Below, in pieces: positions 50,172 to 51,215 of a stretch of DNA of 64,000 nucleotides. Below the pieces are notes generated by a model. That model did no database searches and was not told where the DNA came from. It saw nothing but the letters and a program-made list of their open reading frames with translations. Position 1 is the stretch's first letter; each line of letters opens with the position of its first letter. A program made the position numbers and the translations under genes. The stretch is taken from positions 206,284-270,283 of the forward strand of contig JAHLWR010000002.1 of the NCBI GenBank assembly GCA_019057815.1, given 5' to 3'. This DNA comes from Candidatus Heimdallarchaeota archaeon (lineage in GTDB: Archaea > Asgardarchaeota > Heimdallarchaeia > Heimdallarchaeales > Heimdallarchaeaceae).

Positions 50172-51215
50172 GTGGAAAATGAGAAAGTTGCTGAAATATC
50201 AGAAAAAAAATTTGCGATTCCTTGGAATGACTTCTTGAGCTATAATCTAGTTTTTCTTGCCATTTGGATCGGTTTTCTGTTCTATACGTTTATTTGGGCT
50301 CCAAAAGGTCAACCAGGAGATCCGACTTTTAGCAGTTTAATGAATATCAAAGAAAATAATCCTCTATTATGAGAGACTTTTTTGTACATTTTTTGTTAGG
50401 TTTAAATAGAATAATCAGAATAATAGTGCAGTGTTGTGGAAACATCACTGCTGGCACGGTGTGTCAGGATAATCTCTAAAGAACAAGACATATGATAGGA
50501 TCCTTCCCCTGGGTTCGTCTACCTAGAAGGAAGGTTAGATGACCTTCACAAGGTCACGTGTTCCACATGAGCGGAAGAAGCTTGTCTTCTCCAGTGTCTG
50601 TGACTAAGGTGTTATAGTCCATCTTCAACGGCGCGATGATTGCTTCCCCCTCGTAGGGGTTCTTGAAGCGCAAGATTGTTGTACAACAAAAATGTACAAA
50701 AATTAAGACTATGGGCAGTATTCAACCTAATAGCTGTTTGGTCTTTATTGTATACTGCAATTCTCTTAATTGAACAAAGAGAGAGATTTATACCTTCATG
50801 GCCTTTTATTCTCGCTTCTTTTGCTGCAGGTATGTATGCTTTAATGCCTTATTTTTCAGTAAGAGGTGTTTGGAAGAAGAAAACTAGGGAAAAAAGAAGT
50901 ATTATTATAAAAATTGCTGATTCGAAAATAACAGCTACTGCAATAGCTGTCTTAGTATTCAGTTTATTTCTATACGGGATTATTGCTTCTGCAATCAATA
51001 GCAGTTGGGTAGAATACGGTAATTTGTTCATAAACACACGTTTAGTTCACGTAATGACAATAGATTTCACTTTTCTTACAATCCTATATCCTATTTTAAT
51101 ATGGGACGATATGAAAAGAAGAAACTGGGAAAACAAGAAGATTTTCTGGTTATTTGCACTTTTACCAATCATTGGTCCTACAACTTACTTAGTTGTACGC
51201 CCCAAATTAAAATAA
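50172..51215 (+). pseudogene. Membrane protein (DUF2834-like) interrupted by a 338-bp insertion
   Basis: Removing 50372-50713 gives ..ENNPLL-W-AVFNL.. and a 702-nt (233-aa) frame with HVMTIDF and WDDMKRRNW. Confidence 0.85.
50372..50709. mobile_element. Non-autonomous (MITE-like) element with subterminal inverted repeats and a structured RNA core
   Basis: TATG at 50368-50371 and 50710-50713; IRs TTTTTGTACATTTTT(T)GTT at 50379-50397 and 50685-50702; no transposase ORF. Confidence 0.85.

Follow-up and report, generated by a model that had tools for sequence, protein, structure and literature searches.

A mobile, gene-less 342-base element of a Heimdall archaeon with an omegaRNA-type scaffold

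Stand-alone omegaRNAs that act in trans have been documented (PMC10691335, PMC10055086), and guide-only elements are already known as a kind. The 342-base element of the Heimdall (Asgard) archaeon described here is real and mobile, and its family is a variant of this kind, with an omegaRNA and not a bridge RNA. Like the stand-alone and PATE-like omegaRNA elements (PMC10691335, PMC10055086), it is gene-less and mobile, has the ends of a tnpB element and a scaffold at the right end, and would take its guide from the flank. However, its ends are symmetric inverted repeats around an AT core, whereas PATE elements have IS200/IS605 hairpin ends. It further differs in its Asgard host, in the K-turn of its scaffold and in having ~125 nt of separate leader on the 5' side.

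The element also resembles members of the IS607 group (IS607, IS1535, ISC1926, ISXfa1 and CboIStron; PMC6188088, PMC10711439, PMC10690162). Both have a shared dinucleotide and no duplication, subterminal repeats, a terminal pseudoknot and a scaffold end that matches the last two bases of the TAM. For example, the final two bases of the CboIStron scaffold are the final two of its TAM (PMC10690162), and IS607 ends can have subterminal inverted repeats without a duplication (PMC6188088). However, the core is AT in all copies, whereas it is usually GG in IS607, and the repeats are equidistant from both ends, whereas they are normally asymmetric in IS607. No MerR-serine tnpA was found in cis, and the intact-looking IS607-type ends seen in this genome are different.

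IS1111/IS110 elements with their seekRNA or bridge RNA (PMC11187229) likewise combine a short core with subterminal inverted repeats and a non-coding RNA, but here no DEDD recombinase was found, no loops match the target and the RNA is homologous to the right ends of tnpB elements. Finally, the TnpB elements associated with DDE enzymes or Asgard Cas1 (PMC10691335) are similar in having TnpB between symmetric ends and in being mobilised in trans; in this case, however, the tips are unconserved and no such enzyme is linked to the ends.

The element, its target and its copies

The original prediction placed a 338-bp element with a TATG core inside a membrane-protein gene in the window (G000:C43:206284-270283), by which we mean the whole stretch of 64,000 nucleotides that was analysed. 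The precise insertion is borne out, as removing 342 nt rejoins a membrane-protein frame of 233 codons and a genome of the same genus, G001, has the uninterrupted gene (91% nucleotide identity). The element itself, which carries no protein gene, is thus real, but it is 342 nt in length with one shared AT. The host gene has homologs in 15 further genomes of the family, has no lesion besides the insertion and, for its 3' part, has only a weak, sub-threshold match to DUF7318. The features of the insertion are:

50172..50370, + strand: 5' part of the interrupted membrane-protein gene (233 aa once restored); intact ortholog in G001
50367..50370, + strand: host target and predicted TnpB TAM with the AT core at its end, TTAT here; TCAT in the empty ortholog
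50371..50712, + strand: the gene-less element in full, 342 nt, with the single AT assigned to its right side; from excision, empty site and sister copies
50379..50393, + strand: left subterminal inverted repeat, 8 nt from AT; putative recombinase-binding site
50713..50730, + strand: predicted guide, host DNA into which transcription of the element would continue; from TnpB biology (PMC10711439, PMC10690162)
50713..51215, + strand: 3' part of the interrupted host gene; intact ortholog in G001

The empty site in G001 reads TCAT|G, and the same-genus empty sites of the element and of two sister copies are all three TCAT with a single AT. Therefore, TATG is neither a 4-bp core nor a duplication. 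The sister copies have different junctions, CATG/TATA or CATG/GATG, which together with the empty site implies that the TATG repeat is partly a coincidence; AT is the sole sequence common to both junctions across the copies. The left junction is TCAT in eight of the nine gene-less copies, the exception being the TTAT of the studied copy. The targets share only TCAT, usually followed by G, and their flanks are otherwise unrelated; the base right after the right end is skewed to G/A. At the insertion of a tnpB element, the histidine codon of a host motif likewise assigns the C to the host. A shared core rather than a DDE-type duplication had been expected, and the three empty sites agree with it in having a shared dinucleotide and no target duplication, although a fixed 2-bp duplication of AT would look identical.

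The two full sister copies in the source genome (C7:9672-10016 and C27:9294-9636) are 90-91% identical to the element, i.e., 9-10% diverged. There are also end fragments and a left-deleted copy (C1:147288-147436 = L071:1501-1649). The latter is fused to the end of a glycogen phosphorylase gene; the deletion took the last codons of that gene, and its stop codon is now supplied by the element. The idea that an internal CAT served this short copy as its cryptic left end was rejected, as its empty site indicates a normal TCAT insertion and then a deletion. A covariance model of the RNA finds six copies in the source genome and 16 and 18 in the complete genomes of two relatives, G004 and G007.

In the sequencing runs of the source, read depth on the element is 3.5 to 8 times that of the flank. 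One left and one right junction in these runs (window 50369 and 50713) were not matched to any known copy, which suggests further copies in the sample. The assembled contigs of the runs, which drop rare forms, contain neither an empty site nor a circle joint. At window 50603 the assembly has an A and every source-run contig has a G; the A is likely a consensus error of the assembly.

The RNA and its TnpB relatives

The search for copies and for an autonomous partner thus succeeded as to the copies, and the partner with the same ends is a tnpB element, not an IS110 element. This 1.4-kb element (C1:40720-42144) begins with 20 nt identical to the gene-less left end, its right end is 70% identical to the gene-less element, and between them C1:40773-42062 encodes a catalytically intact TnpB of 430 aa, classed guided_TnpB. 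The TnpB clade has 17 loci in seven genomes of the family, all of them solo tnpB; the left junctions shown have TCAT, and the right ends terminate in GAT or TAT, save at one divergent and two truncated loci. The closest scaffold lies in another genome, G024, where a tnpB element has an 80% match to the gene-less 3' half and an identical terminus; its TnpB is 64% identical to that of the source genome.

A GC-richer structured RNA was correctly foreseen, with a GC content of 47% versus 33% and a fold z of -2.1. The 3' 165 nt of the element are 70-80% identical to the right ends of those solo-tnpB elements whose ends match its own. In an alignment of 17 sequences (seven gene-less and 10 tnpB copies), RNAalifold finds double changes in 16 of 33 pairs. 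When the named structure including the pseudoknot is scored on the same sequences, 96.3% of the cells are paired and 17 of 34 pairs have double changes. Slid controls are 32-51% paired, and none of 500 shuffles scored as high, a count that is not a probability because the sequences are related. The features of the RNA are:

50401..50408, + strand: archaeal TATA-like box, recognised by sequence
50425..50474, + strand: 5' leader, two hairpins and a short conserved tail; recurs in other genomes
50485..50535, + strand: second domain of the 5' leader, possible H-type pseudoknot; kept in a distant copy, no covariation
50563..50603, + strand: scaffold domain 1, outer helix (50563-50570 with 50597-50603) and nested hairpin; seven pairs with double changes
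50606..50625, + strand: scaffold hairpin 2 with the pseudoknot loop 50615-50619; helix 100% paired, three double-change pairs
50631..50671, + strand: K-turn hairpin, canonical stem (50631-50634 with 50668-50671), 3-nt bulge and GA; the stem covaries
50680..50702, + strand: right-end hairpin (50680-50685 with 50693-50698), overlapping the right inverted repeat; from the covariation alignment and repeat search
50707..50712, + strand: element terminus, AT core and 3' strand of the pseudoknot; 98.8% paired, three of five pairs with double changes

Most of the hairpins named in advance are real. One of them, GACTA/TAGTC, is wrong, as TAGTC is a loop (50615-50619) whose partner in 98.8% of the cells is 50707-50711, the last bases of the element, with double changes in three pairs; this pseudoknot also accounts for the non-complementary outer tips of the element. 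An omegaRNA pseudoknot with the terminal motif has been described (PMC12558985), and in an IS607 TnpB system the pseudoknot is needed for activity (PMC10711439). With homology to tnpB right ends, a terminal pseudoknot, a right-end hairpin, a conserved TAM and a variable 3' flank all present, the homology and the covariation identify this RNA, at the level of sequence, as a TnpB omegaRNA scaffold.

The original prediction correctly described a mobile element that encodes no protein and is non-autonomous, has a promoter of its own and a structured RNA, and relies on an RNA-guided protein. It had, however, taken the RNA for a bridge/seekRNA of an IS110 recombinase, and an omegaRNA guides a nuclease. 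An RNA-only parasite of an IS110/IS1111 recombinase, with internal loops that choose donor and target, would have the subterminal inverted repeats, the short shared core and the non-coding RNA observed here, and loop 50615-50619 behaves like a donor-binding loop in that it covaries with the sequence of the right end. But all 10 tnpB-encoding copies have this covarying loop too, and it is the known in-cis omegaRNA pseudoknot; there is no covariation with the left tip or with the targets, which have only TCAT in common, and the repeat offsets are 8/8, whereas the repeat extensions of IS1111 are 7 nt (left) and 3 nt (right) (PMC11187229). The internal look-alikes proposed as guides are unchanged in copies with unrelated flanks, and the look-alike of the circle junction arises from a substitution private to the studied copy. 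Likewise, a check of guide against target gave no covariation; four copies with unrelated flanks have the same proposed target loop. The IS110 domains PF01548 and PF02371 have no match in the source genome (95% complete), and no IS110 domain was found in the complete genomes G004 and G007, which are rich in elements (16-18 matches to the RNA model each). PF01548 occurs in three of 31 family genomes, none of which matched the RNA model. Taken together, we regard an IS110 parasite as extremely improbable.

The last stem of the RNA was predicted to be K-turn-like, and this stem is conserved among the copies. The partner strand has the canonical G-A in 12 of the 17 copies and A-A, an A-for-G variant, in the studied subfamily; such a variant K-turn still binds L7Ae (PMC3985660). 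The source genome has L7Ae-family genes, and one might speculate that L7Ae binds this K-turn. We found no paper describing a K-turn inside an omegaRNA in the literature library searched.

The TATA-like box of the anticipated promoter is conserved: it is present in all of the gene-less copies and upstream of tnpB. The predicted transcript would start near 50425-50432. The leader of ~125 nt that precedes the scaffold is without counterpart in the tnpB elements. Its first hairpins have some covariation, and G004 and G007 also have the second hairpin with the tail in their gene-less elements. The possible pseudoknot (50485-50535) is invariant among copies, save that each helix has one broken pair in the studied copy, whose leader has private changes. 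The two-hairpin module is also present, with no element ends around it, at one syntenic locus on the chromosome in five genomes of a sister genus and, partially, in a sixth at a contig end. This chromosomal homolog (L148:1440-1600, also L149-L152 and L165) is ~115 nt, non-mobile and has its own TATA-like box and three hairpins. In the module the stem is invariant and the 3-nt loop variable, a pattern compatible with an RNA hairpin as well as with a palindromic DNA site. Speculatively, the leader might stabilise the transcript, aid its processing or set its 5' end. Rfam gave no credible match for the element or the chromosomal homolog. Two other identities were dismissed by inspection: an HDV-like ribozyme in the leader (no P4 or J4/2) and 5S rRNA for the chromosomal homolog (wrong topology, only six genomes). 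The hairpin at ~50540-50558 has a likeness to palindromes upstream of the solo recombinase genes, which was disregarded because the G024 copy does not keep it.

Our main reading, to which we give a probability of about 0.85, is that the element is a TnpB omegaRNA mini-transposon, MITE-like and derived from a solo-tnpB element of the Heimdallarchaeaceae whose tnpB gave way to a promoter and a structured 5' leader. One could instead suppose that the omegaRNA is unused by any TnpB and is an inactive relic or solely a regulatory RNA bound by L7Ae. The non-consensus TAM of the studied copy, the divergence between copies and the private leader changes would suit such a relic, and the source assembly yielded no copy of the closest cognate tnpB. 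However, all of the scaffold helices, pseudoknot included, are intact in the studied copy once A50603 is read as G, and the host gene is otherwise undamaged, and we consider a relic quite unlikely.

The ends and the search for a mobiliser

The perfect 15-bp inverted repeats (50379-50393 and 50688-50702) are subterminal, and their outer segments are non-complementary, both as predicted; they do not lie 7 nt from each end but 8 nt from the AT. This distance is 8 nt at both ends when copies are compared, and the outer 8 nt are neither conserved nor complementary between the two sides.

Symmetric ends would also be expected if a DDE (or Cas1-like) transposase bound the inverted repeats of the same omegaRNA element and duplicated the AT, and TnpB is known with DDE transposases that have inverted terminal repeats and with Asgard Cas1 (PMC10691335). 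Moreover, junction sequence cannot separate a fixed 2-bp duplication from a 2-bp core. However, the variable target duplication and terminal repeats that are the hallmark of DDE-type MITEs were not observed; the tips are non-complementary and only AT is shared. The tips of DDE elements are usually conserved and complementary. In addition, no multi-copy transposase was recognised among the repeats examined, and the cas1 genes of the source genome are two in CRISPR operons and one broken copy without such ends. A DDE or Cas1 mobiliser thus seems unlikely to us. The broken cas1 (L079; G000 C36:6072-6894) is a solo gene outside any CRISPR operon. Among the repeats there is also a two-copy one of 1.9 kb (L248, G000 C24:13640-15578, and C38:152835-154772) with ORFs of 236 and 330 aa that have no Pfam match.

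No transposase was found inside any of the elements, and scans of the source genome for paired ends yielded only tnpB. The tnpB gene was also the only candidate in cis at the 17 tnpB loci, in 34 regions of the two complete genomes and at five distant homolog loci, and it was all that was obtained from ten proteins examined as possible cis transposases. An element of 1.79 kb in G007 proved to be another TnpB. Searches for a MerR-serine TnpA element with matching ends found none, and tyrosine integrases have no match in the source genome.

Movement of the same omegaRNA element as single-stranded DNA by an IS200/IS605 Y1 transposase, as in PATE, would account for insertion just 3' of a fixed tetranucleotide without duplication, which is the TAM/TEM pattern. 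The source genome has two Y1 genes, and hairpin ends of the IS605 type occur among TnpBs distantly related to the cognate one (~36% identical). On the other hand, the ends of the element have no matching GC-rich subterminal hairpins and are unlike the hairpin-ended elements of the source genome, the complete genome G004 has many of these elements and no Y1 match, and in its G/A bias the first base past the right end resembles IS607 more than IS605 (PMC10711439). Y1 transposition is therefore, in our view, improbable.

The family does have solo serine recombinases of 240-280 aa, which are chromosomal, with one paralog at a clearly syntenic site. They were found in 22 of 24 family genomes and in none of 197 other Asgard genomes searched, and the two complete genomes yielded no serine recombinases besides them. 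This distribution is suggestive as evidence for a mobiliser; the restriction of both recombinases and elements to one family is a single evolutionary event and not a statistical test. The source genome has three loci (L034:1489-2208, L254:71-841 and L255:166-1002; C1:82593, C24:157206 and C21:46274), and the genes have conserved palindromes in their leaders. Since the genome has no tyrosine recombinase match, these enzymes could instead serve in chromosome dimer resolution. A right-end remnant of the element family (L034:1377-1441; G000 C1:82481-82545) adjoins one of the recombinase genes upstream, a position at which relatives have a different operon.

A proposed life cycle follows from the mini-transposon reading. 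The element is mobile and inserts at TCAT without target duplication, with one AT common to target and end. By analogy with IS605/IS607 work (PMC10055086, PMC10690162), transcription from 50401-50408 would run through the right end into host DNA, which would serve as the guide. A TnpB acting in trans, e.g., the 430-aa protein of C1:40773-42062, would load the RNA and cut the empty allele at TAM plus guide, and repair from the occupied chromosome copy would then retain the element. The element's own end should escape TnpB cutting because it reads CTAT. As the left flank of the studied copy is TTAT and not TCAT, its protection may be weak and its excised site may escape cutting.

Excision would produce a double-stranded circle with a dyad junction of repeat, 8 nt, AT, 8 nt and repeat. 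This dyad, the scaffold end that matches the TAM, and the precedent of IS607 subterminal repeats without duplication lead us to favour a crossover of the serine recombinase type at AT, with such a circle, over DDE or Y1 chemistry, and by analogy we consider it somewhat probable. The family-specific chromosomal serine recombinases would be the leading named candidate for the mobiliser, and that they move the element is possible, a proposal we make tentatively.

AT-core families and what they may mean

Several further AT-core families in the source genome have other repeats. There is also a second gene-less family, ~235 nt in length (G000 C1:108320-108559 and at least five more), in which the repeat of the studied element lies one base nearer to AT, the structured leader is a different one and part of the sequence resembles the right end in another TnpB clade. 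A third AT-core family, whose tandem end repeat is different again, comprises a 505-aa TnpB and about eleven miniatures of 360 bp (C1:149571-149926 plus some ten others; C10:10569-12344, C39:27522-29291 and C40:44853-46635). For one other AT-core TnpB clade, an outside relative lies behind an IS607 tnpA, whereas distant relatives of the clade described here have hairpin ends of the IS605 type, and so more than one TnpB lineage seems to have been taken up by these ends.

One could combine these patterns into a wider picture, in which Heimdallarchaeaceae have a transposon system without a transposase of its own: two or three conserved chromosomal serine recombinases would move several AT-core families, these families would have recruited unrelated TnpB lineages and spawned guide-only miniatures, and the omegaRNA of the clade would be an L7Ae-bound RNP whose 5' leader module is common to a non-mobile host small RNA. 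All of this being true jointly is a rather doubtful proposition.

In conclusion, a false candidate for a bridge RNA is eliminated, and an Asgard TnpB clade gains a fold supported by covariation, a TAM (TCAT) and a guide boundary, which make its nuclease directly testable. A K-turn in an omegaRNA, if confirmed, would link TnpB to the L7Ae RNP machinery of archaea and eukaryotes. Finally, close relatives of the eukaryotes have a very abundant family of elements without a visible transposase, for which the host recombinases are a testable candidate.
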